DNA from: Candidatus Bathyarchaeia archaeon
Lineage (GTDB): Archaea > Thermoproteota > CALKCG01 > B24
Direction of reading: 5' to 3'
Assembly: GCA_038870975.1 (NCBI GenBank)
Contig: JAVZJD010000001.1
Location: forward strand, 704,001 to 768,000
Length of the DNA stretch: 64,000 bases
Part shown: in pieces, positions 45,918 to 56,719 of the stretch
Layout of the letters: each line of letters starts with the position of its first letter
Numbering within the stretch: position 1 is the stretch's first letter
The notes under the pieces: generated by a model
Database searches by the model: none
What the model was told of the DNA's origin: nothing
What the model saw: the letters and a program-made list of their open reading frames with translations, nothing else
Program-made: the position numbers and the translations under genes

Positions 45918-45960
45918 TTATCTAAATTTTAGACAAATTTTCTTGTCTAAAACTTTAAAA
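45918..45960 (+). promoter_or_regulatory. Palindromic operator abutting TATA box of ORF 45981
   Basis: ttatctaaa-ttttagacaa-attttc-ttgtctaaaa-ctttaaaa; 25 bp identical to 56684-56708. Confidence 0.7.
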
Positions 45961-45980: not shown

Positions 45981-46526
45981 TTGAACATGATTGAAAAATG
46001 GAGAAAACATGATATTTATTATGGCTATGAGTATTACTACAAGTTAAATGACCTTATTAAATCTGGTAAATGTAACCACGATGTAAGAAGCACTCCAGAG
46101 TATAAATTGCTATCAACTATAAACCCTCATCTCGCTGAGGCTCTGGCTATTGAAAATGAAATTATTAATTTAAGGAATTCGCTTAAGAATAATCGTTCAG
46201 AGAAAGGGAAAAACAACTATCTAAAAAATTTAAAGCTTCAAAATCAGATAAGAAAACTTGAGCTTAAGAGAGATCTTGAATTGAATAAAGCTAAAACAAG
46301 ATTAGGTTATATAGATACAATGAATGCTTGGAAAAGAAGGAGAGCTAAGGAAAAAATCGCAAAAATTAGAAAAATACCAGGCAAAGTTAAAACCAAGATC
46401 AATGATTTCATAACAAGTCTTATAGCCAAAGGGATTGAAAAAACTACTATTCCTTATAAAATAGAGGAAATTGTTAAAAACGGAATGAATCAGACGCTAA
46501 AAGATCTGGTGGAGGAAAAAAGTTAA
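45981..46526 (+). CDS. Hypothetical basic, AT-rich protein
   Basis: 181-aa K/N-rich ORF preceded by TATA-like and GAGG sequences. Confidence 0.6.
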   Translation: MNMIEKWRKHDIYYGYEYYYKLNDLIKSGKCNHDVRSTPEYKLLSTINPHLAEALAIENEIINLRNSLKNNRSEKGKNNYLKNLKLQNQIRKLELKRDLELNKAKTRLGYIDTMNAWKRRRAKEKIAKIRKIPGKVKTKINDFITSLIAKGIEKTTIPYKIEEIVKNGMNQTLKDLVEEKS

Positions 46527-46574: not shown

Positions 46575-47819
46575 TTAATCTTCATTAACTACTGTTATGT
46601 GAGTTGCACAGGATATACAGGGGTCGAATGCCCTTATAGCGGTTTTAAGATTTTCCACAGCCTCTTTTACTGGTAGACCTTTTTCAAGAGCCCTTTCAAC
46701 GATATTTCTAGAAAACGCCTTAAGAAAGGGTAGATTTAACTCCGTTGGAGTTATTATTTTAATGCTCTTTACTACTTCTTCTTCAACTTCACACTCGTAA
46801 ATCAATGTACCCCTAGGAGCTTCAACGAAACATCTTCCGAAGCCGCTCTTCTTCTGTGGAGTTTTCCTGTACAATCCTTCTAAGTCCTTTAAAGTTCTCA
46901 ATAAATTCATAGAATACGATAGAGCATTTATAATCTCTAAAATCCTAAGCATGTAAAGATTAAGTAGATTATAAATTGGGAGACCCTCTTCTAGACTATA
47001 ATGTAAGCTAATGAGAGTTTGTCGAGCCAAAGGCCCTGTAAGAATGTCTCTAGTTAACAGGTCTTTAAGTTCTTCCAGAACTTCTAACTCTCTCCAGCTT
47101 GTGCCCTCGTATACCTTAAGCGTACCGTTTATCGGATCCATATCTCTACCGAAGCTTGTAATAAGAGCAGGTGTTCTCTCCAAATTAAACATCTCATAGT
47201 ATTTAGACTTACTAAGATTCTTGGAAATGTTCAGAGCCCAGTTCATGTCTTCCAAGACCTTTTTAACCTCTCTCTCAAGATCGTTTATTGAAGACCCTAC
47301 GATCGGCATATTTAGAAGACCTCCTACTGTCGATATCCCAGGTGATATGGGTCCTCCCGCTATTGATGATAGTAGTCGATCGGCAAACCTTATAACGTTT
47401 AAACCACTACGGAGTAGTCTATAATCCAATAGCTTTTCATCCATTCCAAGAAGTCTAGTGGCATCTTGAAGTCCCATTAAAAAAAGATTATAGGAATGAC
47501 TTCTAATATGTTCTAAGCTCAGAATCAGCCGTCTAACACTTGATGCTAATGGAGGTGCTTCTACATTCAAAGCCTTCTCTAATGCTATAGAGGCGGCTAT
47601 TTGGTGAGAAAACGGGCAGACGCCACATACTTTTGTCACTAACGATGGAATAATGTGGGCTCTTTTTCCGCGTAGAAGGGTTTCAAACTTCCTTAAAACC
47701 GGAAGATTAAGCTCCAATTCTTGAACCTTCCGTTTATGTATTTTAACGATGACTTCTGAAGCGCCTTCAACTCTCGTAAGCGGATGTACTTGTTTAAAAG
47801 ACATACTCCCTCTTCCCAT
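46575..47819 (-). CDS. Group 3 [NiFe]-hydrogenase large subunit (start probably 47804)
   Basis: TRVEG, L1 KVCGVC, EAPRG, L2 DPCISCATH plus 7-aa C-terminal tail. Confidence 0.92.
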   Translation of the reverse strand: MGRGSMSFKQVHPLTRVEGASEVIVKIHKRKVQELELNLPVLRKFETLLRGKRAHIIPSLVTKVCGVCPFSHQIAASIALEKALNVEAPPLASSVRRLILSLEHIRSHSYNLFLMGLQDATRLLGMDEKLLDYRLLRSGLNVIRFADRLLSSIAGGPISPGISTVGGLLNMPIVGSSINDLEREVKKVLEDMNWALNISKNLSKSKYYEMFNLERTPALITSFGRDMDPINGTLKVYEGTSWRELEVLEELKDLLTRDILTGPLARQTLISLHYSLEEGLPIYNLLNLYMLRILEIINALSYSMNLLRTLKDLEGLYRKTPQKKSGFGRCFVEAPRGTLIYECEVEEEVVKSIKIITPTELNLPFLKAFSRNIVERALEKGLPVKEAVENLKTAIRAFDPCISCATHITVVNED

Positions 47820-48537
47820 ATAGGTTTAGGATATCTATAACATCATACTTCAACTCCTTAGGAATGGTAAGTAAAGCTAAGAAATCAATTAGAGATGTTA
47901 ACGAATTATCCTTAAGTGTACCCATACATCCATAGCAACTCCCACCTTGAACAATACATTTTGCCTCACATCCAGCTCTAGTTATAGGTCCAAGGCATAG
48001 AATCCCCTCCTCTAATAGGCACTGCTCGGTTTTCCGCTTTGGAAAAATTTCTCTAATGATTATTGGATATTTTGCCCTACAAGGATGGAATGGGCACTCT
48101 GAGCATACGTTAACTGTCTTATGTTTGAATTCTCTACCACCGATTAAGGCGTAAAGTAGCATCGACATCAGGTTTTCAGGAGGGGGGCAACCTGGGAGCT
48201 CCAGGTCCACTTTTATTATACTATGTATGGGTTTAAGCTCTAGCTCTTTAACATTGCTCGAGATACCTCCAAAGCATGCACAAGACCCTATGGAAATTAC
48301 TCTTCTAGCCTTTGCACGTACTTTTTTAAGCAATTTTTCATCTTCTTTCAAAGCTGAGCCCTCTATAAGTAGCACATCACAATCATCTACATCTCCCCCA
48401 TCCTTTATCATTGGGAAAAAAGCCACGTAACCCTTATTCCATAGTTCTCTAAAGACACTTGAATCTATTACTGATGTTAAACAGCCGCTGCATCCAATAA
48501 ATTGGAGGAAACCTATTTTAGAGGCTTTTAGCCCCAT
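47794..48537 (-). CDS. Group 3 [NiFe]-hydrogenase small subunit (MvhG/HyhS-like)
   Basis: GCSGC, GSCACFGG, PGCPP, CSEC...CLGPITRAGC.A.C......CYGC. Confidence 0.92.
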   Translation of the reverse strand: MGLKASKIGFLQFIGCSGCLTSVIDSSVFRELWNKGYVAFFPMIKDGGDVDDCDVLLIEGSALKEDEKLLKKVRAKARRVISIGSCACFGGISSNVKELELKPIHSIIKVDLELPGCPPPENLMSMLLYALIGGREFKHKTVNVCSECPFHPCRAKYPIIIREIFPKRKTEQCLLEEGILCLGPITRAGCEAKCIVQGGSCYGCMGTLKDNSLTSLIDFLALLTIPKELKYDVIDILNLYGKREYVF

Positions 48538-48539
48538 TG

Positions 48540-51017
48540 CTAAGAACCTCCTAGGTTGCGCATAAAATCGTCCAAAGCTTTTGCGAAAACCCTCCCCTCA
48601 ACGGCAGACAACTGAAGGATTTTAACTTTATTTTTAAACATATTTTCAAATAACTGGATGTTTTCTATTCTTTTCTCAGCAAGTTCAGCTCCTAAACCAT
48701 AGCGGCATGACTCTTTCCTACATCCAACTACTAATACGCCATCGAACCCCTTCTCTAAAGCGTGGGCTATAAGCTCTGAATCTATTAGTCCAGCACACGT
48801 AACTTTCAATGTAAACGCTTTAGCGGTATATTCCAGACTTTTAACACCAGCATCTATGAATGCAGGATAGCCGCAGTTAGCACAGGCTAGCACTAAAACC
48901 TTCGGTTTAAAGTATGCCTTTGAAAATTCATCCATAAATGCTAATAACTCCTCTTCATTAATTGAGGATAAGCGTAGCGCATCTGTAGGACATACCGCCG
49001 TACAAAGACCACAAGCCTTGCACTTGAACTGATCTACGGTCATTTTGTCCGCAGAAAATTTTATTGCGTTAAATGGACACACTGTAGCACAAAGACCGCA
49101 GGTTCCACAGCTTTTTTCGTCTAATAAAATCCCCTCTTCCTCCACTGTAACTTCACCTTTCGTGAGAAGGGAAGCCACTTTTAATGCTGTAGATTGAGCA
49201 TCGTAGACAAGTTCTCTGTACGTTTTAGGACCAGTTATGGAACCGCATGCGAAAATACCAAAGGGTAACGTATCAGGGTTTAAAAACCCCCTATCTGTTG
49301 TAGAGATATCTAAAAGTTTTTTAAGCTCCATTATACGCTTTCTGGGGTCTTCTCCCAAGTTTAAGATGACTAAATCGCAGTCCCATTCAAATTCATCCCC
49401 TAAAACCTTAGGGCCTTCCTCAATACGTAAGTTCTTAACAATATGAATGGGTAGGTCTTTCAAATTACCCAAAGGCGCATTTGCAGGAATCCTATCCTCT
49501 TCAAAAATTATTCTTATATCCATACTAGAGTCCATCTTCTTCAAAGTTTCAAAATACTTGCGAGCAAGAATGCAACAGTATTTTGAGCAACCTACTTCAT
49601 TTATACATTGAATGATAGCTACCTTTTTGGGATGGGATTTACCAAATCTTAGTAAAACTTCTTCGATTGGAGCTTCTGGGGTGAGTAAGCTCTCTAATTC
49701 GACGTTCGTTATGACGCCAGTAGTCAATCTATGTTTAAACTTTTTCAATAGTTCGCCATTGTAGTTATCGCAACCCGTTGCGATAACTATGGCTCCCACT
49801 CTGTATATATTCTCCATGCCTTTTGAATCGAAATTTATAGCTCTTGATGGACAGTTCTCTTCGCATTTGCGACATGAAAAGCAACGTTGGTTGTCATTTT
49901 TATCCACGATTGCTGCTTTAGGATAAACCGTCGATAATGGGAGGAAGATCTGTTTTCTGACAGTAAAGCCTAGATAACGTTCGTCTGGCTTTTCTACGGG
50001 GCAAACTTCAATACAGCGGCCACAGAGAGAACACCGTTCAGCATCCACATACGTAGGATTAGTCTTAACTATAAGTTGGAAATCCCCAATCTTCCCAGAA
50101 ATTTGGATAACTTCGGAGTTTGTGAGTATTTTAAGATTTTTAAACTCCAGAACGCTTGAGATTATTTCAGACATCATACAGCTAGCACAGTCACTTTCGC
50201 CATACACACTACTCCAATTCATTACCCTACCGCCTAATGTATGCTCCCTCTCTATCAAGTATGTTTCAAACCCCATTAAAGTCATGTATCTGGCAACAAT
50301 TAAACCGCTTATTCCTCCTCCTATAATCGCTACAGACTTAGGAATACGGACAGTCCTCTTGAAGGGCTTAGGTTTAAAATTTATCGCTCGAACAGCTCCA
50401 TTAATTGTACACATAATCTTCTCGAAAGCTTCCTTTGGAGAACTTCGGTTAACCCTTATGCATCCTTCAAGGATATTTACAGCTTCGTAAGGAATATCTA
50501 TGGTTGAAAGAAGTTCACGTAATCCATTATGAATCTCCGGAGAGCAACCTACTATAACAATTCCATCTAAAAGGTTTCTCTCTATCCACTTTTTTATCCT
50601 CTGAAAATTCCCAGGGCTACATACGTTTTTAAATACGTCAACGGCTACAATATTTTCCATTTCAGATAGCTTTGATGATAACTCTTCTAAATTTATAACC
50701 TTAGAAACTTCACCATGACATTCACAAAATATTATACCAATTCTAGAAACACGTATAGGCTCAGCAACACCAGTACGCCTAACTCCCAACCCCTCTTTAA
50801 GTCTTAAGAAATTGTAAAGTTCGTAACCTTCTTCATTTAAAGAATAAAGTTTTCCCCTCTTCTCTATAAAGGGTGAAATCTTACTCAAATGATAATTAAA
50901 TTTACCAGTTTCTTTAACCCCCACCTTTTCCATAAGCTCAGAATAGGTTAGGGGACCCAGTTCTCCTAAAACCCTGATTATGCTTTCTCTTATAGGATGG
51001 GTTAAAACATCGAACAT
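48540..51017 (-). CDS. Winged-HTH + HdrA-like flavoprotein + MvhD fusion
   Basis: aa 1-73 wHTH (LTHPIRESIIRVL..YSELME..GKFNYHL..YSL); HdrA motifs (FCEC, GCSP, IGGGISG, DCASC, IQC..CSKYCC, GPK, four ferredoxin motifs); MvhD motifs (CANCGY, CAG, DGVLVVGC...C.Y). Confidence 0.88.
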   Translation of the reverse strand: MFDVLTHPIRESIIRVLGELGPLTYSELMEKVGVKETGKFNYHLSKISPFIEKRGKLYSLNEEGYELYNFLRLKEGLGVRRTGVAEPIRVSRIGIIFCECHGEVSKVINLEELSSKLSEMENIVAVDVFKNVCSPGNFQRIKKWIERNLLDGIVIVGCSPEIHNGLRELLSTIDIPYEAVNILEGCIRVNRSSPKEAFEKIMCTINGAVRAINFKPKPFKRTVRIPKSVAIIGGGISGLIVARYMTLMGFETYLIEREHTLGGRVMNWSSVYGESDCASCMMSEIISSVLEFKNLKILTNSEVIQISGKIGDFQLIVKTNPTYVDAERCSLCGRCIEVCPVEKPDERYLGFTVRKQIFLPLSTVYPKAAIVDKNDNQRCFSCRKCEENCPSRAINFDSKGMENIYRVGAIVIATGCDNYNGELLKKFKHRLTTGVITNVELESLLTPEAPIEEVLLRFGKSHPKKVAIIQCINEVGCSKYCCILARKYFETLKKMDSSMDIRIIFEEDRIPANAPLGNLKDLPIHIVKNLRIEEGPKVLGDEFEWDCDLVILNLGEDPRKRIMELKKLLDISTTDRGFLNPDTLPFGIFACGSITGPKTYRELVYDAQSTALKVASLLTKGEVTVEEEGILLDEKSCGTCGLCATVCPFNAIKFSADKMTVDQFKCKACGLCTAVCPTDALRLSSINEEELLAFMDEFSKAYFKPKVLVLACANCGYPAFIDAGVKSLEYTAKAFTLKVTCAGLIDSELIAHALEKGFDGVLVVGCRKESCRYGLGAELAEKRIENIQLFENMFKNKVKILQLSAVEGRVFAKALDDFMRNLGGS

Positions 51018-51388: not shown

Positions 51389-52822
51389 TTAAAATAATGC
51401 TTCCATAATACCCAACGAGCCTCGTTTTTCTTCTTCAGTACTACTTAAAATTTGCGCTAGAAGTCCTTCTCTCTTCATAGTTATTTCTGGTCTCAAATAT
51501 GGTTGACCCCCTCCATAAAGACATCCTCTATTACATATGTAGAGTTCTATCGCTCCTTCTCGTAATCTTCCATCATTTACGCTCATTAATATTCTCTCCA
51601 TCTCTTGAATTCCTACAGCTTTATTTGTTTTAAAGTTTAACTCATTTAATTTAACCTCATCAAATGACTTTTCAGTCAATATACCGAAGTCTAAAGTACT
51701 TAGTAATCTGATAAGTTCTCTCGTAGTAAGAATAAGCCCTCTACTAAGTTTCCTAGCTAAACACGAAGTAATCCATACAACAGAAGAGCTATCGATTTTA
51801 GGAGGCTCAATCATATACTTAGAAAGTTCTGGATGAAATCGCTGTATATAGATTGCTTCAGCCTCACTGCTTGGAATTATCGTTAGATTATCTTGCACTC
51901 TCACTGCAACCTGAGGCCTCCAGAGGATAACTTTTTCAAATCCTAATTTTTTAAGTGCTGCTACTGCGATTCCGCTAATTCGTTTATCAAAATTCAGTTC
52001 TTCACCAAGAGCTGCTAAAACCTCTGGTTCAACATAGGCTGTTAAGCGAGTTCCAGATTTAAGAAGCCTCTGAACCTCACTTACGGAGCTTCTCTCCTTT
52101 AAAGCACCTACCGGGCAGTATAACGTACATTGACCGCAACTTATGCAAGATGACTCATCTAGCTTAACTTTAAATGGTGTGGATACTGTTGTCTCAATGC
52201 TTCTGTTTATATAGTCTATCGCAGAAACAATTTCTTGACATACTTTAACGCATCGGCCACATGTAATACATTTCTCCCCGTCTAATGATAATGCAGTTCC
52301 CTCGATATCCAGTGTTTTCTCACGAATAAATGGAAATCTTCGCTCCTCTTGTTTAAACCACACGTTTTGGAGAATCTTCTCTAAAAGACTTAACAATTCA
52401 TATCTATTCATCGGGCATCCTCTAACGTAATAATCGACATTGACGAATCTGCTAACTGGCATCGCCTCGCTAAAGTATTTATGTTCAGAGTAATCTTCAA
52501 CATACACACTTTTTACTTCATCTTCATTTGTAAATCTTCTTAAGCCTGGCACACCGCCTAAAACTGCACATGATCCCATTGCTATTAATATCTTAGATCT
52601 TCTTCTGATGTCTTTAATCGTCGCAACATCTCCCTCCGAGACTATAGCACCCTCAATTAGAGAAATGTCATAGTTTTCACATTTTTCATCTGCTCCCAAA
52701 AGCGTGGAGAATACAACCTCAACTTCTTTATTGTAGACCATTTTCAGCAAGTCTTCACTTAAATTTAACATCTCAATAGTACAACCCGAACAACTTCCAA
52801 ACTTGTATATGGCGATTTTCAT
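51389..52822 (-). CDS. Chimera: [NiFe] small-subunit N-domain + 2x[4Fe-4S] + degenerate [FeFe]-hydrogenase H-domain
   Basis: GSCSGC, EGAI, GSCAVLGG, GCP; CITCGRCVKVC, CISCGQCTLYCPVGAL; ALGEE, ALKKLGF, TSCLARK, LTTREL, ELYICNRGCLYGGGQP. Confidence 0.85.
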   Translation of the reverse strand: MKIAIYKFGSCSGCTIEMLNLSEDLLKMVYNKEVEVVFSTLLGADEKCENYDISLIEGAIVSEGDVATIKDIRRRSKILIAMGSCAVLGGVPGLRRFTNEDEVKSVYVEDYSEHKYFSEAMPVSRFVNVDYYVRGCPMNRYELLSLLEKILQNVWFKQEERRFPFIREKTLDIEGTALSLDGEKCITCGRCVKVCQEIVSAIDYINRSIETTVSTPFKVKLDESSCISCGQCTLYCPVGALKERSSVSEVQRLLKSGTRLTAYVEPEVLAALGEELNFDKRISGIAVAALKKLGFEKVILWRPQVAVRVQDNLTIIPSSEAEAIYIQRFHPELSKYMIEPPKIDSSSVVWITSCLARKLSRGLILTTRELIRLLSTLDFGILTEKSFDEVKLNELNFKTNKAVGIQEMERILMSVNDGRLREGAIELYICNRGCLYGGGQPYLRPEITMKREGLLAQILSSTEEEKRGSLGIMEALF

Positions 52823-53527
52823 CTACTCATCACCTTCATCAAACCATTCATTTTTATTATTCTTATTGAAGAACTGTGCTATCACTTTAACAACGCTATC
52901 ATAGTATGGACTGCTAGAATAATATCTACCCAGTTTCACAAGGATATTCTCCAGAGTTATTCCATGACTGCTATAGAGCTTCACAGCCTCTTTAATTACA
53001 TCAGTACGCATTATCGGTCCACGGCATCCTTCACAGCTTCTATTACTGTGCATACATATGCCATCACATCCAGCGACTGTTAGAGGTCCAAGGCATACTT
53101 CACCGTTAGCCAATAGACAGTCTTCTTCATGCAAGGGGCACTCTGCGCACACAGGTATACCTTCAACACCATATTCCTTACATAAAACTAGTAATTCACA
53201 TTTACCTCCCTTTCTTGGGCATGATTGACACTTAATCTTATGAATAGCTAAAATAACCTCCAAAGCCAATTTACGGTCGCTTCTAACTCTTTCATTATTT
53301 GTTTCCACGTTTAATCCTTCAGATACGGGGAATGCACATGAAGGAATCATCTTACCAGTTTTCTTATCCTCTACCACACATATTCTACATGTAGCTTCTT
53401 CAAACACATTGGGGAAATAACAAAGGGTAGGTATTTCTATACCGAGTTTTTTCGCAGCCTCAAGTACTGTAGTACCATCTTCAACAGTAGCCTCTTTCCC
53501 ATCTATGATTACCCTTACCATGCTCAT
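52823..53527 (-). CDS. Chimera: NuoG/HydA-type [2Fe-2S] + His-ligated [4Fe-4S] domain + [NiFe] small-subunit C-terminal Fe-S domain
   Basis: IPTLCY..CRICVVE..PSC; HKIKCQSC....CEL; CAECP....CLL..G.VCLGPLT.AGC...C......CEGCRGP. Confidence 0.85.
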   Translation of the reverse strand: MSMVRVIIDGKEATVEDGTTVLEAAKKLGIEIPTLCYFPNVFEEATCRICVVEDKKTGKMIPSCAFPVSEGLNVETNNERVRSDRKLALEVILAIHKIKCQSCPRKGGKCELLVLCKEYGVEGIPVCAECPLHEEDCLLANGEVCLGPLTVAGCDGICMHSNRSCEGCRGPIMRTDVIKEAVKLYSSHGITLENILVKLGRYYSSSPYYDSVVKVIAQFFNKNNKNEWFDEGDE

Positions 53528-53528
53528 A

Positions 53529-55508
53529 TCACCTCTTTACTACGGCCCCTCTTGGGCATACCATGGAGCATTGTCCGCATCTTATGCACCTTTCAGCATC
53601 TATATAGTATTTGCCATCAATATCCTTAAATATTGCTTCAACGGGACAATTCTTCGCACAGAGTCCACATCCTATACAAACATCCTTATCGATTGTATAG
53701 TTTAACAGCTTTTTACATACTTTTGCGGGGCACCTCTTCTCGTTAATATGGGCCTCATATTCCTCCCTAAAGTATTTGAGTGTTGTTAAAACTGGATTTG
53801 GAGCCGTTTGGCCTAACGCACATAAGCTTGCATCTTTCATGAATTTACTTACGTTTTCTAAGACTTCCAAGTCTTCTTCCAAACCACCTCCATCTATTAT
53901 TCTGCTAAGGGTATCATAAAGTATCTTTGACCCTGCTCTACATGGTAGACATTTACCACAGGCCTCAGCCATAGTAAATGTTGTGAAAAACCTCGCTACG
54001 TCTACTATACAGTTGCTATCATCAATAACGACTAATCCACCAGACCCCATTATAGCACCTGCAGAGGTTAAACTTTCATAGTCTATCGGTAAATCAAGTG
54101 CACTTTCAGGTAAGCATCCTCCAGAGGGTCCACCAATCTGAACGGCTTTAAATTTTCTCCCTTCTCTAATGCCTCCTGCTATCTTAAATATGAGTTCTCT
54201 TATTGTTGTTCCTATTGGGACTTCAGCAGCCCCTGTCCTCTTAGCACATCCAGTAATACAGAAGACCTTTGTCCCTTTACTTCTCTCAGTTCCATACCTG
54301 GCAAACTTTTCCCACCCTTCGGCCATTATTGTAGCTACATGAGCTAGCGTTTCAACGTTATTGATGGTCGTCGGTTTACCAAATAAGCCATGTGTAGCTG
54401 GATATGGTGGACGCTGTCTTGGCATAGCTCGCCTCCCCTCTATGGCTGCTAACATCGCTGTTTCCTCTCCACAGACAAATGCTCCTGCGCTCCGTACAAC
54501 TTCTACGTTGAAGTTAAACCCTGAATTGAATATGTTTTTTCCTAAGAAACCGTATCGCCTAGCTTCATCAACTGCCTTTTCCAACCTTTCAGCCATCAGG
54601 GCTTTCTCCGCTCTAACAAAAATATATCCATATGTAGCACCTATGGCGTATGCAGCTATTATTAAGCCTTCTAAAACTCTATGAGGATCTGCTTCAGCAA
54701 GCATCCTATTCATGAAAGCTCCAGGATCTCCTTCATCAGCATTGCATATAACGTATTTAGGTTCCCCCTGAGCCTTTCTACATATATCCCATTTTAACCA
54801 TGTTGGAAAACCAGCTCCTCCTCTTCCTCTTAGACCAGACCTCTTAACTTCTTCTATAACCTCTCCAGGTGATAATTTTAATGTTCTATTGAGGCCAAGG
54901 TAGCCACCGTGAGCAATGTACTCTTCAATTGACTCGGGGTTTATGATGCCACAATTTCTGGTAACCCACTTCACTTGATACTTGTAGAAGTCTATCTCCT
55001 CTAAGAGAGGAACCTTATTTTCACCTCTAGCATTACCCGTTCTACTTCTGAGAGCAAAGGCGTTGCTAACATCACCATTATTTAAATATTCATCTAGAAT
55101 TTTTCCGACATTTTCAGGAGTCACTTTACTATAAATGGCATGAGGTAATCCATCCTTACGTATTTCGACTAAAGGTTCAGCATAACATAAACCCATACAG
55201 CCAACGGGGACGATAGAAACTTCTAATCCTCTTTGCTTAACTTCTTTCTTGATAGCGTGATAAACTTCCCCAGCTCCAACAGCTAAACCGCAGCTTCCCA
55301 TGCCCACAGTTATTTTTACTCCACCCTTACCATTTCTTATCTCTGAAATTCTCCGTAACCTTCTTTCTTTACATTCCACGTCTTTATGGCATAATGGGCC
55401 ATTAACTCTACATGTTATATAGTCCTTGCAGGGTCTCTCAATCTTATGGTTGCATTGACTACAACAGGCATCCATTAAACTCAATCCATTATGGACATCC
55501 AATGGCAT
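53529..55508 (-). CDS. NADH-binding flavoprotein HydB/NuoF type with extra Fe-S domains
   Basis: Thioredoxin-like 2Fe-2S N-domain, GRGGAGFPT, NADEGDPGAFM, CGEET, GGPSGG, CGKCLPCR, C-terminal 2x[4Fe-4S]. Confidence 0.93.
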   Translation of the reverse strand: MPLDVHNGLSLMDACCSQCNHKIERPCKDYITCRVNGPLCHKDVECKERRLRRISEIRNGKGGVKITVGMGSCGLAVGAGEVYHAIKKEVKQRGLEVSIVPVGCMGLCYAEPLVEIRKDGLPHAIYSKVTPENVGKILDEYLNNGDVSNAFALRSRTGNARGENKVPLLEEIDFYKYQVKWVTRNCGIINPESIEEYIAHGGYLGLNRTLKLSPGEVIEEVKRSGLRGRGGAGFPTWLKWDICRKAQGEPKYVICNADEGDPGAFMNRMLAEADPHRVLEGLIIAAYAIGATYGYIFVRAEKALMAERLEKAVDEARRYGFLGKNIFNSGFNFNVEVVRSAGAFVCGEETAMLAAIEGRRAMPRQRPPYPATHGLFGKPTTINNVETLAHVATIMAEGWEKFARYGTERSKGTKVFCITGCAKRTGAAEVPIGTTIRELIFKIAGGIREGRKFKAVQIGGPSGGCLPESALDLPIDYESLTSAGAIMGSGGLVVIDDSNCIVDVARFFTTFTMAEACGKCLPCRAGSKILYDTLSRIIDGGGLEEDLEVLENVSKFMKDASLCALGQTAPNPVLTTLKYFREEYEAHINEKRCPAKVCKKLLNYTIDKDVCIGCGLCAKNCPVEAIFKDIDGKYYIDAERCIRCGQCSMVCPRGAVVKR

Positions 55509-55626: not shown

Positions 55627-56190
55627 CTATATTTCGCCATATGATTCTCCTTTAGTTTTAGTTCGATACTTGGAAATTATCCTACGGAGCTTCTTAAAAT
55701 CAACTTCACCATATATTTCATCATTCACTTTGATAACTGGGGCTAGACTGCAGCATCCTAGGCATCTAACTTTAAATACAGTGAAGAGCCTATCCTTAGA
55801 AGTATTTTCGCCAGGATTAATATTAAGTAAATTCAGTAGGAAGTTGTAGTTTTCAGAGTTGCCTTTAATATGGCACGCTGTGCCCATACATATTTGTATT
55901 ATATTCTCACCGGGCGGCTCCATATTGAATTGATGGTAAAACGTGGCGACTCCATAGATGCTACTTAGTGGTACTTTTAAATTGTTTGAAACAAGTTCTA
56001 AGCTCCACTTTGGAAGATAACCTAATCTATTCTGAATTTTCTGGAGGATCAGAATGAGGGTTTTTCTAGATCTACCATTACTTTCAATAACATTGTTTAT
56101 AACTTCCTCAATAAATGCTACATCAACATCTCTAGATACTTGCTGTTGCAAATCCTCGCCTCCATTGCTCTGTTGTTCTCTGGGGCTCAC
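55627..56190 (-). CDS. HydC/NuoE-type [2Fe-2S] subunit
   Basis: GVATFY, CMGTACH, CLGCCSLAP. Confidence 0.93.
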   Translation of the reverse strand: MSPREQQSNGGEDLQQQVSRDVDVAFIEEVINNVIESNGRSRKTLILILQKIQNRLGYLPKWSLELVSNNLKVPLSSIYGVATFYHQFNMEPPGENIIQICMGTACHIKGNSENYNFLLNLLNINPGENTSKDRLFTVFKVRCLGCCSLAPVIKVNDEIYGEVDFKKLRRIISKYRTKTKGESYGEI

Positions 56191-56199
56191 CTACTACGC

Positions 56200-56640
56200 T
56201 TATAGTTGCGCTCTTAAGAAGTACCATAGATGCTTGCAGAACTCTTCATACTGTTGTGGAGTAAATAGATATTGGATGTCTTCTTCAAGATTTGTTGGCT
56301 CAACTTCAGCAACCCACTCTTTTTCTGGGTCGTTATTTAAAGCTGATATGTTGTTTAAAGCTTCATCATTAATCTTTTTAATTCTGCCAGAAACTGGTGA
56401 AGTTAATTCAAAAGTGACCCCCTTCATTTTCACTGCCCCTAAGGGCTCCATCCGTTTAACCTCAGCTCCAATCGGCTTCAGCTCACAACAAACATCATAT
56501 GCTCCATTTTTGCTCAATTCTTTAAAACAATCACATATTTGTTGAGTTAATCCAATTCTAACAGTTTGTTCATCAGTAATCGTTACCCACATGAGGGAGG
56601 ATGTGTAGAGGAAACCTGAAGGGTAAATTTTCTTACTCAT
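56200..56640 (-). CDS. Glycine cleavage H-like protein lacking the canonical lipoyl Lys
   Basis: Y....MWV, RIGLT, SPVSG.I..IN, N.DP...W, Y fold signature. Confidence 0.82.
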   Translation of the reverse strand: MSKKIYPSGFLYTSSLMWVTITDEQTVRIGLTQQICDCFKELSKNGAYDVCCELKPIGAEVKRMEPLGAVKMKGVTFELTSPVSGRIKKINDEALNNISALNNDPEKEWVAEVEPTNLEEDIQYLFTPQQYEEFCKHLWYFLRAQL

Positions 56641-56675: not shown

Positions 56676-56719
56676 TTTTAAACTTTTAGACAAATTTTCT
56701 TGTCTAAATTTTAGATAAG
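56676..56719 (-). promoter_or_regulatory. Palindromic operator abutting TATA box of the gcvH-like/hydCB operon
   Basis: Minus strand reads cttatctaaaatttagacaagaaaatttgtctaaaagtttaaaaa; same layout as 45918-45960. Confidence 0.7.

Follow-up and report, generated by a model that had tools for sequence, protein, structure and literature searches.

The 64,000-nt window analysed here (contig JAVZJD010000001.1 of the Candidatus Bathyarchaeia archaeon assembly GCA_038870975.1, positions 704,001 to 768,000) contained a pair of adjacent genes combining parts of the HydA subunit of bifurcating [FeFe]-hydrogenases with parts of the small subunit of group 3 [NiFe]-hydrogenases. Gene 1 encoded HydD (P0001) and gene 2 a HyhS-HydA fusion (P0002), the TAG stop codon of the former being followed without a gap by the ATG of the latter. 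An initial annotation, made from the sequence alone, had delimited both open reading frames (ORFs) and their abutting arrangement exactly as found. It had also proposed that the order of domains is HydA-N, S-C in gene 1 and S-N, HydA-C in gene 2, where S-N is the N-terminal proximal-cluster domain of the small subunit and S-C its C-terminal domain with two [4Fe-4S] clusters. This order was borne out by NCBIfam, Pfam and BLASTP mapping (Table 1).

Domain composition of the gene pair

Residues 4-127 of P0001 corresponded to positions 1-123 of the NCBIfam model for bifurcating [FeFe] HydA (NF040763, E = 1.2e-36), and residues 124-216 to positions 164-258/261 of the model for sulfhydrogenase delta, the group 3b small subunit (NF040836, E = 5.7e-14). 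The complementary portions were found in P0002, where residues 2-187 matched positions 7-188 of NF040836 (E = 2.1e-25) and residues 167-299 matched positions 129-266 of NF040763 (E = 5.8e-41). Pfam placed Oxidored_q6 at residues 11-149 of P0002 (E = 1e-25), together with two Fer4 domains and a partial Fe_hyd_lg_C domain at residues 388-438. The same division was seen by BLASTP against an intact 247-amino-acid small subunit encoded 4 kb downstream, to which P0001 aligned with its residues 117-172 (residues 135-208 of the intact protein, E = 9e-12) and P0002 with its residues 2-159 (residues 7-140, E = 2e-10). When queried alone, the C-terminus of P0001 matched residues 160-255 of the P. furiosus SHI delta subunit (PDB 9e1j_A, E = 2.6e-12), as well as MvhG/VhuG. 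The breakpoints of the two parent proteins are thus complementary and leave hardly any sequence missing or doubled, a pattern that chance similarity would not give.

The fold searches were consistent with this mapping. The single-chain model of P0002 matched both HydA and MvhG (5odi_E) in Foldseek, and that of P0001 matched the N-termini of NuoG and HydA over residues 1-122 (Z 14-16). As this N-terminal match dominated the search with the whole HydD fold, S-C was assigned from its sequence. Residues 150-299 of P0002 aligned without a break with residues 118-265 of HydA in 8a6t_A, so that the ferredoxin-type clusters of P0002 are those of the HydA F-domain and not the medial and distal clusters of a small subunit.

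HydD contained 16 ligands for four clusters, all invariant across 41 homologues. They comprised C36, C47, C50 and C64 for a [2Fe-2S] cluster and H96, C100, C103 and C110 for a His-ligated [4Fe-4S] cluster in the HydA-derived part, and all eight cysteines of S-C (C127, C130, C137, C145, C154, C158, C165 and C168). In P0002, the proximal-cluster ligands of S-N (C11, C14, C85 and C136) were conserved among relatives, and the F-domain possessed two sets of four cysteines (C185, C188, C191, C195 and C226, C229, C232, C236). The window pair thereby kept all 12 cluster ligands of the small subunit, divided over S-N and S-C.

Table 1. Coordinates, within the window, of the gene pair, its domains and the neighbouring genes.
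Feature	Coordinates	Strand	Length (amino acids)	Assignment
Gene 1 (P0001)	53527-52823	minus	234	HydD
HydD residues 1-123	53159..53527	minus		HydA/NuoG-type N-terminus; Pfam Fer2_4 and NADH-G_4Fe-4S_3
HydD residues 124-216	52880..53158	minus		Group 3 [NiFe] small-subunit C-terminal domain with two [4Fe-4S] (S-C)
Gene 2 (P0002)	52822-51389	minus	477	HyhS-HydA fusion
Gene 2 residues 1-150	52373..52822	minus		Group 3 small-subunit N-terminal proximal-cluster domain (S-N); Pfam Oxidored_q6
Gene 2 residues 176-250	52073..52297	minus		HydA F-domain, 2x[4Fe-4S]; NF040763 and 8a6t_A alignment
Gene 2 residues 251-477	51392..52072	minus		Reduced H-domain; best Foldseek match HydA 8a6t_A, E = 3e-21
hydB (P0003)	53529..55508	minus	659	HydB/NuoF-type flavoprotein, Bfu-type; Pfam/NCBIfam
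hydC (P0005)	55627..56190	minus		HydC/NuoE-type [2Fe-2S] subunit; Pfam/NCBIfam
GcvH-like gene	56200..56640	minus		GcvH-like protein; first operon gene
HdrA-MvhD/small/large subunit unit	46575..51017	minus		Beyond a 372-bp AT-rich gap
wHTH-HdrA-MvhD	48540-51017	minus		Fusion with N-terminal winged-helix DUF7347
Intact small subunit	47794-48537	minus	247	[NiFe] small subunit
Large subunit	46575-47819	minus		Mvh-type [NiFe] large subunit
Palindrome, downstream copy	45924-45951			28 nt, operator-like
Palindrome, upstream copy	56681-56708			28 nt, operator-like
ORF inside the downstream palindrome	45981-46526	plus	181	No Pfam match

The initial annotation had further proposed that both parent proteins can be rebuilt only in a heterodimer of the two gene products, and the complex model agreed with such a heterodimer. 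With a separate alignment for each chain, the three runs gave ipSAE values of 0.85, 0.86 and 0.85, while none of the three controls exceeded 0.00, with at least 92% of the contacts common to the runs and a partner pLDDT of 88; the mark used was attained by 58 of 80 solved complexes but by only 2 of 110 mismatched pairs. Both expected reunions lay at the modelled interface. In one part, S-C (P0001 131-176 and 201-207) was placed against S-N (P0002 84-145), with P0001 168-170 (R169) on P0002 R134, beside the proximal ligand C136. In the other, HydA-N (P0001 34-123) faced the F-domain and the linker preceding it (P0002 154-255), with P0001 H96-97 on P0002 183-186 (H96 to K184/C185), at the first F-cluster cysteine. 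The prediction supports reassembly of P0001 and P0002 as a heterodimer.

Relationship to group F hybrids, H-domain reduction and loss of hyhL

An unexpected connection between the two major hydrogen enzymes came to light in 2024 with the report of hybrid [FeFe]/[NiFe] hydrogenases, in the form of a group F [FeFe]/group 3f [NiFe] complex made of a HydA-HyhS fusion, HydBCD and HyhL (Greening et al., Cell 2024, PMC11216029). The window pair is the HydD and HyhS-HydA fusion of this published design, with P0002 joining HyhS at its N-terminus to the H-domain of HydA at its C-terminus (Pfam, NCBIfam, Foldseek) and with contiguous hydC, hydB and hydD genes. Its architecture is not new. The initial annotation had supposed that it may be undescribed, allowing that identity with a described group would speak against this, and that identity is what was found. 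In the published account, which covers 21 group F genomes, HydD is termed a "NuoG-like" conduit with four clusters and the fusion is credited with 'three electron-relaying clusters of the [NiFe] component' (PMC11216029). The main text of that paper contains no 'permut' or 'split' wording, does not describe the swap as reciprocal, and nowhere equates the two extra clusters of HydD with the small subunit's own C-terminal domain. The reciprocal-swap reading is therefore a refinement of a known architecture, in which S-C sits on HydD and the extra clusters of the fusion are those of HydA, and it alters how the published electron wiring is read. New at the window locus relative to published group F are the missing L1 cysteines, the missing hyhL and the neighbouring genes, in addition to this reading and that of a single crossover (see below).

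Full-length relatives formed an archaeal family of about 38 clusters for P0002 and about 67 for P0001. In an exhaustive search, two forms of the fusion were distinguished, the long forms (mostly 502-580 amino acids) keeping the L1 ligand cysteine (SWCP), and the short forms (mostly 427-501 amino acids) including the window protein. In a tree of the homologues recovered here, the short forms were sister to the long forms that keep the H-cluster ligand cysteine (SH-aLRT 100). A metagenome scan with the long forms yielded four short contigs only. Most members recovered were short forms lacking the L1 cysteines, from thermophilic Thermoproteota, Bathyarchaeia and one Archaeoglobales metagenome-assembled genome (MAG). 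In the long-form operons (L172 and L173), the genes followed the order hydC-hydB-fusion-hydD-hyhL, and HydD was the same HydA-N and S-C chimera, its identity to P0001 being 44% in the one (residues 4-206) and 36% in the other (residues 4-196). The reciprocal swap is thus ancestral to the whole family and not peculiar to the window locus. HydB was short (413-431 amino acids) and devoid of extra iron-sulfur (FeS) domains in the long-form operons (L172 7706-9001, L173 2906-4147), and of the Bfu type in the short-form operons (558-678 amino acids among the gene calls read, mostly 647-678); whether the enzyme bifurcates may differ between long and short forms. The short-form operon of the Archaeoglobales MAG (L035, L038) was nested among Thermoproteota sequences, which suggests acquisition by lateral transfer.

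The H-domain announced for gene 2 in the initial annotation was present but reduced, with only the last 51 columns of Fe_hyd_lg_C matched. Compared with solved HydA, about 98 residues were missing, from the pocket-forming regions. At L1, the canonical TSCCP was replaced by IPSSEAE in the window protein, following a P-x-S-x-A-E pattern in the short forms. The L1 cysteine was gone in all 49 short-form alignment rows, S319 and E322 being invariant, and one member (L050) had a cysteine one position earlier. S319 occupied the position of the ligand cysteine in two of three alignments, and also when aligned through an intermediate sequence (P0223) that still has PCC. L2 C354, L3 C430 and C434 and the GGGQP motif were invariant in the short forms. 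All H-cluster cysteine ligands are conserved in group F, whereas P0002 kept C354, C430 and C434 and had S319 in place of the L1 cysteine. P0223 (L089 8001-9464), together with L031, represented an early-branching short-form lineage with the canonical L1 'PCC', which would be an intermediate between the long forms and the short forms without the cysteine. In the genome (1.85 Mb, 92.9% complete), HydG had no match and the best HydF score was 37 bits against a cut-off of 325 bits, HydE not having been searched. In the HydA of Acetomicrobium mobile, a [4Fe-4S] cluster stands where the H-cluster would be (PMC8880783). In the present lineage, the H-domain is most likely non-catalytic. Having kept three of the four cubane ligands, with an invariant serine for the fourth, it would probably hold only a terminal [4Fe-4S] cluster with one serine ligand, by analogy with cluster A5 of that protein. 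Many genes annotated, now or later, as "archaeal [FeFe] hydrogenase" may consequently encode Bfu enzymes that are driven by a [NiFe] site and whose H-domain is a fossil.

The loci were surveyed by scanning one genome per species and by tblastn mapping. About 40 loci had the order hydC-hydB-hydD-hyhL-fusion, and hyhL-bearing hosts included Desulfurococcales, Sulfolobales, Thermofilaceae, Wolframiiraptor, Pyrobaculum, the Archaeoglobales MAG and Bathyarchaeia. hyhL was absent from eight surveyed loci (the window, L005, L006, L007, L009, L010, L017 and L030), which belonged to Bathyarchaeia wherever the record was named. In the tree rooted with the long forms, they made up a single clade (SH-aLRT 98; one change) nested within the hyhL-bearing forms, indicating one loss of hyhL. 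The contiguous hyhL of group F was accordingly missing from the window, the stop codon of gene 1 adjoining the start codon of gene 2. None of the four [NiFe] large subunits of the genome was a free HyhL orthologue. The one encoded in the window had 23-27% identity to the hybrid HyhLs, which rules it out as a relocated hyhL, and its gene overlapped that of its own small subunit. The second was committed to a complete 3b operon, which rules it out as a replacement, and the remaining two adjoined short small subunits (148-153 amino acids) and presumably belong to group 4. The earlier description of a [NiFe] module hard-wired into a HydABC scaffold therefore suits the approximately 40 relatives with hyhL between the two genes, but not the window, where the operon lacks hyhL and the only large subunit nearby is already paired with an intact small subunit.

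Between the window and four other hyhL-less loci (L005, L009, L006 and L007), dN/dS ranged over 0.08-0.16 for HydA-N, 0.09-0.20 for S-C, 0.13-0.21 for S-N, 0.02-0.08 for the F-domain and 0.11-0.20 for the H-domain. All five domains are under purifying selection (dN/dS 0.02-0.21), which maintains the reduced H-domain as well as the orphaned small-subunit module. Relaxed selection on the orphaned S-N was rejected, the ratio of S-N to H-domain identity being 1.12, compared to 1.07 in hyhL-bearing pairs of similar divergence, with the exception of L030. At that locus (995-2338), S-N had decayed to 17-28% identity, compared to 41-62% in the H-domain, the proximal-cluster motifs were broken and the HydD match was in two pieces; this decay may be real or an assembly artefact. 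As selection persists on it, the orphaned small-subunit module must serve a replacement partner. The Bathyarchaeia clade would thus present a hydrogenase scaffold that persists without either catalytic centre, with its domains under selection, and a tractable case for finding the replacement.

Concerning the origin of the chimeras, the best model common to both small-subunit halves was 3b delta and that common to both HydA halves was bifurcating HydA (NCBIfam). The short-form order (HydD, HyhL, fusion) turns into the long-form one (fusion, HydD, HyhL) by cyclic permutation, which would follow from the integration of one parent, borne on a circle, into the other. We infer that one illegitimate crossover of a bifurcating-type hydA with a group 3 (3b-like) hyhS made both chimeras together. 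A Campbell-type integration, with one parent on a circular molecule, would give both chimeras at once and either gene order, so that a single event would account for the two proteins and the two permuted arrangements. Other origins were disfavoured, namely an inversion, from which convergent genes would result, an unequal sister exchange, which would yield one chimera only, and two fissions followed by two fusions, which is less parsimonious.

Operon partners, neighbouring genes and candidate functions

HydB (P0003) possessed a NuoF_pre_CCxxC prefix (residues 10-59) and a C-terminal 2x[4Fe-4S] domain (Fer4 x2 at 604-655), while its N-terminal thioredoxin-like [2Fe-2S] domain (2Fe-2S_thioredx, 61-141) was marginal (E = 2.5e-5; 24.6 bits against a cut-off of 24.8). 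Such extra FeS domains (CCxxC prefix, N-terminal [2Fe-2S] and C-terminal 2x[4Fe-4S]) mark Bfu-type bifurcating enzymes (PMC8880783, PMC9304861). The operon thus encoded the BfuB-like subunit with extra FeS domains (P0003) and the BfuC-like subunit (P0005) of BfuABC/HydABC enzymes, and the [2Fe-2S] and [4Fe-4S] Y-junction of BfuA was present, divided over the two chimeric genes.

The GcvH-like gene that opens the operon was found in six of the eight hyhL-less loci (the window, L005, L006, L007, L010 and L017) but in none of the approximately 40 hyhL-bearing loci, and is a gain of the hyhL-less clade. In the encoded proteins, an invariant lysine was one residue off the canonical lipoyl-lysine register, and paired cysteines (CDC/CEC, VCC) occurred in some. 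Three separate clades had genes for LplA-type lipoate-protein ligases no more than about 7 kb away from the hybrid operons (L002/L003/L023 15140-15844; L014; L024; L031/L089 998-1816; L172 12738-13559). The ligase gene was about 7 kb downstream in Sulfolobales and Desulfurococcaceae, and in L002/L003 it was inside a 2-oxoacid dehydrogenase cluster. The recurrence of these neighbours hints at a lipoyl link.

Downstream of the pair, a unit encoding HdrA-MvhD fused to an N-terminal winged helix-turn-helix (wHTH) domain, the intact small subunit and an Mvh-type large subunit adjoined the chimeras in five of the eight hyhL-less loci and in none of the approximately 40 hyhL-bearing ones. It had the same orientation as the pair in the window, L005 and L009, and was convergent in L007 and L010. 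The genome contained no CCG-domain HdrB, so that a different partner is required for HdrA-MvhD. The two copies of the palindrome (96% identical) flanked the entire block, which runs from the GcvH-like gene to that of the large subunit. This fits co-regulation at least, and possibly control by the wHTH domain of the HdrA-MvhD fusion. Just inside the downstream copy lay the 181-amino-acid ORF of Table 1; L005 had a 176-amino-acid ORF, also devoid of family matches, at the equivalent position.

Judged from these relationships, the pair most likely acts as the scaffold that holds the iron-sulfur clusters in a bifurcating module of the NuoEF type. The fuller account, in which a group F-type reciprocal-chimera pair fulfils this role with a vestigial H-domain after the loss of hyhL, is held with somewhat more confidence than doubt. 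In the modelled heterodimer, S-N and S-C would rebuild a three-cluster small subunit, and HydA-N, the F-domain and the H-domain a HydA-like body. HydD and the fusion would together be a two-chain equivalent of BfuA, an FeS Y-junction feeding the flavin site of HydBC, and the HydC/HydB module would, judging by its homology with HydABC and NiFe-HydABCSL, carry out flavin-based bifurcation with NAD(H) and ferredoxin. In hyhL-bearing relatives, electrons from H2 at the [NiFe] site would pass to the proximal cluster, then to the S-C clusters and to those of HydA. For the hyhL-less clade, the preferred guess, which falls a little short of even confidence, is that H2 is still the third substrate, delivered via the linked Mvh-type [NiFe]/HdrA-MvhD unit.

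Several observations weigh against this account. Once artificially matured, the group F fusion of Th1 was an active [FeFe] hydrogenase, and HydEFG are likewise missing from most archaea whose [FeFe] enzymes are active (PMC11216029), which makes the absence of maturases weak evidence only. Three hyhL-less loci (L006, L017 and L030), deeper-branching or on short contigs, had no Mvh cluster in the available flank. The Mvh linkage may be regulatory, through the wHTH domain, and not physical; the gene for the Mvh-type large subunit overlaps one for a small subunit of its own, and the unit lies behind the 372-bp gap and is convergent in L007 and L010. The complex score may in part stem from resemblance to solved structures of HydA and of small subunits. 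Finally, the single-crossover origin is drawn from gene order only and, although the simplest scenario, is unproven.

Among the alternatives, the Mvh-type large subunit may dock both on the split S-N and S-C and on the intact small subunit encoded beside it, one catalytic subunit then serving two electron routes. This is a minority possibility. The retention of all 12 cluster cysteines in S-N and S-C, under selection as in hyhL-bearing relatives, is what it would lead one to expect, and the confinement of the adjoining Mvh-type cluster to hyhL-less loci and the palindromes common to the block speak for it too. Its cost lies in the low identity of this large subunit to the hybrid HyhLs (23-27%), the overlap of its gene with that of its intact small subunit and the separate orientation of the Mvh unit in L007 and L010.

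With about the same, rather low, probability, the complex is no longer a hydrogenase, and the split small subunit has taken on a new role in partner docking and electron exchange, its exposed proximal cluster serving a substrate other than H2. Candidate partners suggested by the gene neighbourhood would be the GcvH-like protein, as a lipoyl or dithiol carrier, or the wHTH-HdrA-MvhD fusion, for which HdrBC is missing. The restriction of GcvH-like genes to the hyhL-less clade (6/8 compared to 0/~40), the lipoate-ligase genes recurring beside hybrid operons in three clades and the absence of CCG-domain HdrB from the genome point in this direction, and half of all Bfu enzymes are non-hydrogenases (PMC9304861). 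The argument, however, is one of gene neighbourhood, one clade counts as one evolutionary event, and the displaced lysine leaves the lipoylation of the GcvH-like proteins uncertain. If true, this would be a Bfu-type enzyme built on a hydrogenase fossil from which both catalytic sites have been removed, with a protein-bound dithiol as the third substrate or with two flavin-based bifurcating modules coupled to each other.

It is unlikely that the pair retains an active [FeFe] arm, in which a full H-cluster, with Ser319 (or a glutamate) as the fourth cubane ligand, would be matured by another archaeal pathway and no [NiFe] subunit would be needed. The invariant L2 and L3 cysteines and GGGQP motif, the H-domain dN/dS and the precedents of Th1 and of the maturase-less archaea are compatible with a serine-ligated H-cluster. 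Yet both the proton-relay and the ligand cysteine of L1 were lost over the 49-row clade, the long forms and P0223 retaining the latter, about 98 residues of the pocket-forming regions were deleted, K358 aligned with Arg and M497 with Tyr, and most clade members kept hyhL, suggesting that, as in A. mobile, the [NiFe] site took over catalysis. That both genes are decaying relics without function after the loss of hyhL is very improbable, for L030, with its degraded S-N and its HydD match in two pieces, stands against intact ORFs in the window and at the six remaining hyhL-less loci, the full set of cluster ligands and the low dN/dS of every domain.

Comparison with known systems

The closest system is the group F/3f hybrid (PMC11216029), which shares with the window the fusion of S-N with 2x[4Fe-4S] and H-domain, a four-cluster HydD of 215-235 amino acids, adjoining genes for NuoE- and NuoF-type subunits and the same host classes (Bathyarchaeia, Thermoproteia). 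The window operon differs in lacking hyhL, in the replacement of the L1 cysteines (S319) and in an H-domain about 100 residues shorter. Its HydB is a 659-amino-acid protein of the Bfu type, whereas that of group F/3f has a GltA domain in the published model or is short (L172, L173). The window also has the GcvH-like gene and the adjoining wHTH-HdrA-MvhD/Mvh cluster.

The NiFe-HydABCSL complex of A. mobile (PDB 7T2R/7T30; PMC8880783) likewise combines a HydBC bifurcating core with a HydA-derived scaffold. It has a plain [4Fe-4S] cluster instead of the H-cluster, and its small subunit, with the proximal cluster only, passes electrons to the HydA clusters (PMC8880783). There, HydA (692 amino acids) and HydS (179 amino acids) are separate and unpermuted and the S-C domain is absent, whereas at the window locus S-C has moved onto the N-terminal fragment of HydA and HydL is missing.

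The group 3d enzyme HoxFUYH (PDB 5XF9) resembles the window system in its HoxU-like [2Fe-2S]/[4Fe-4S] subunit, its one-cluster HoxY and its NuoEF-type diaphorase, but HoxF is non-bifurcating, HoxH is present, and there is neither an H-domain nor a domain swap. Finally, the MvhAGD-HdrABC complex of methanogens (PDB 5ODC) recalls the neighbouring unit with its HdrA-MvhD, MvhG-like and MvhA-like proteins. Unlike in methanogens, the window genome has no HdrB or HdrC, HdrA bears an N-terminal wHTH domain and the tie to the chimeric pair is unproven, while within the pair itself S-N structurally matches MvhG.

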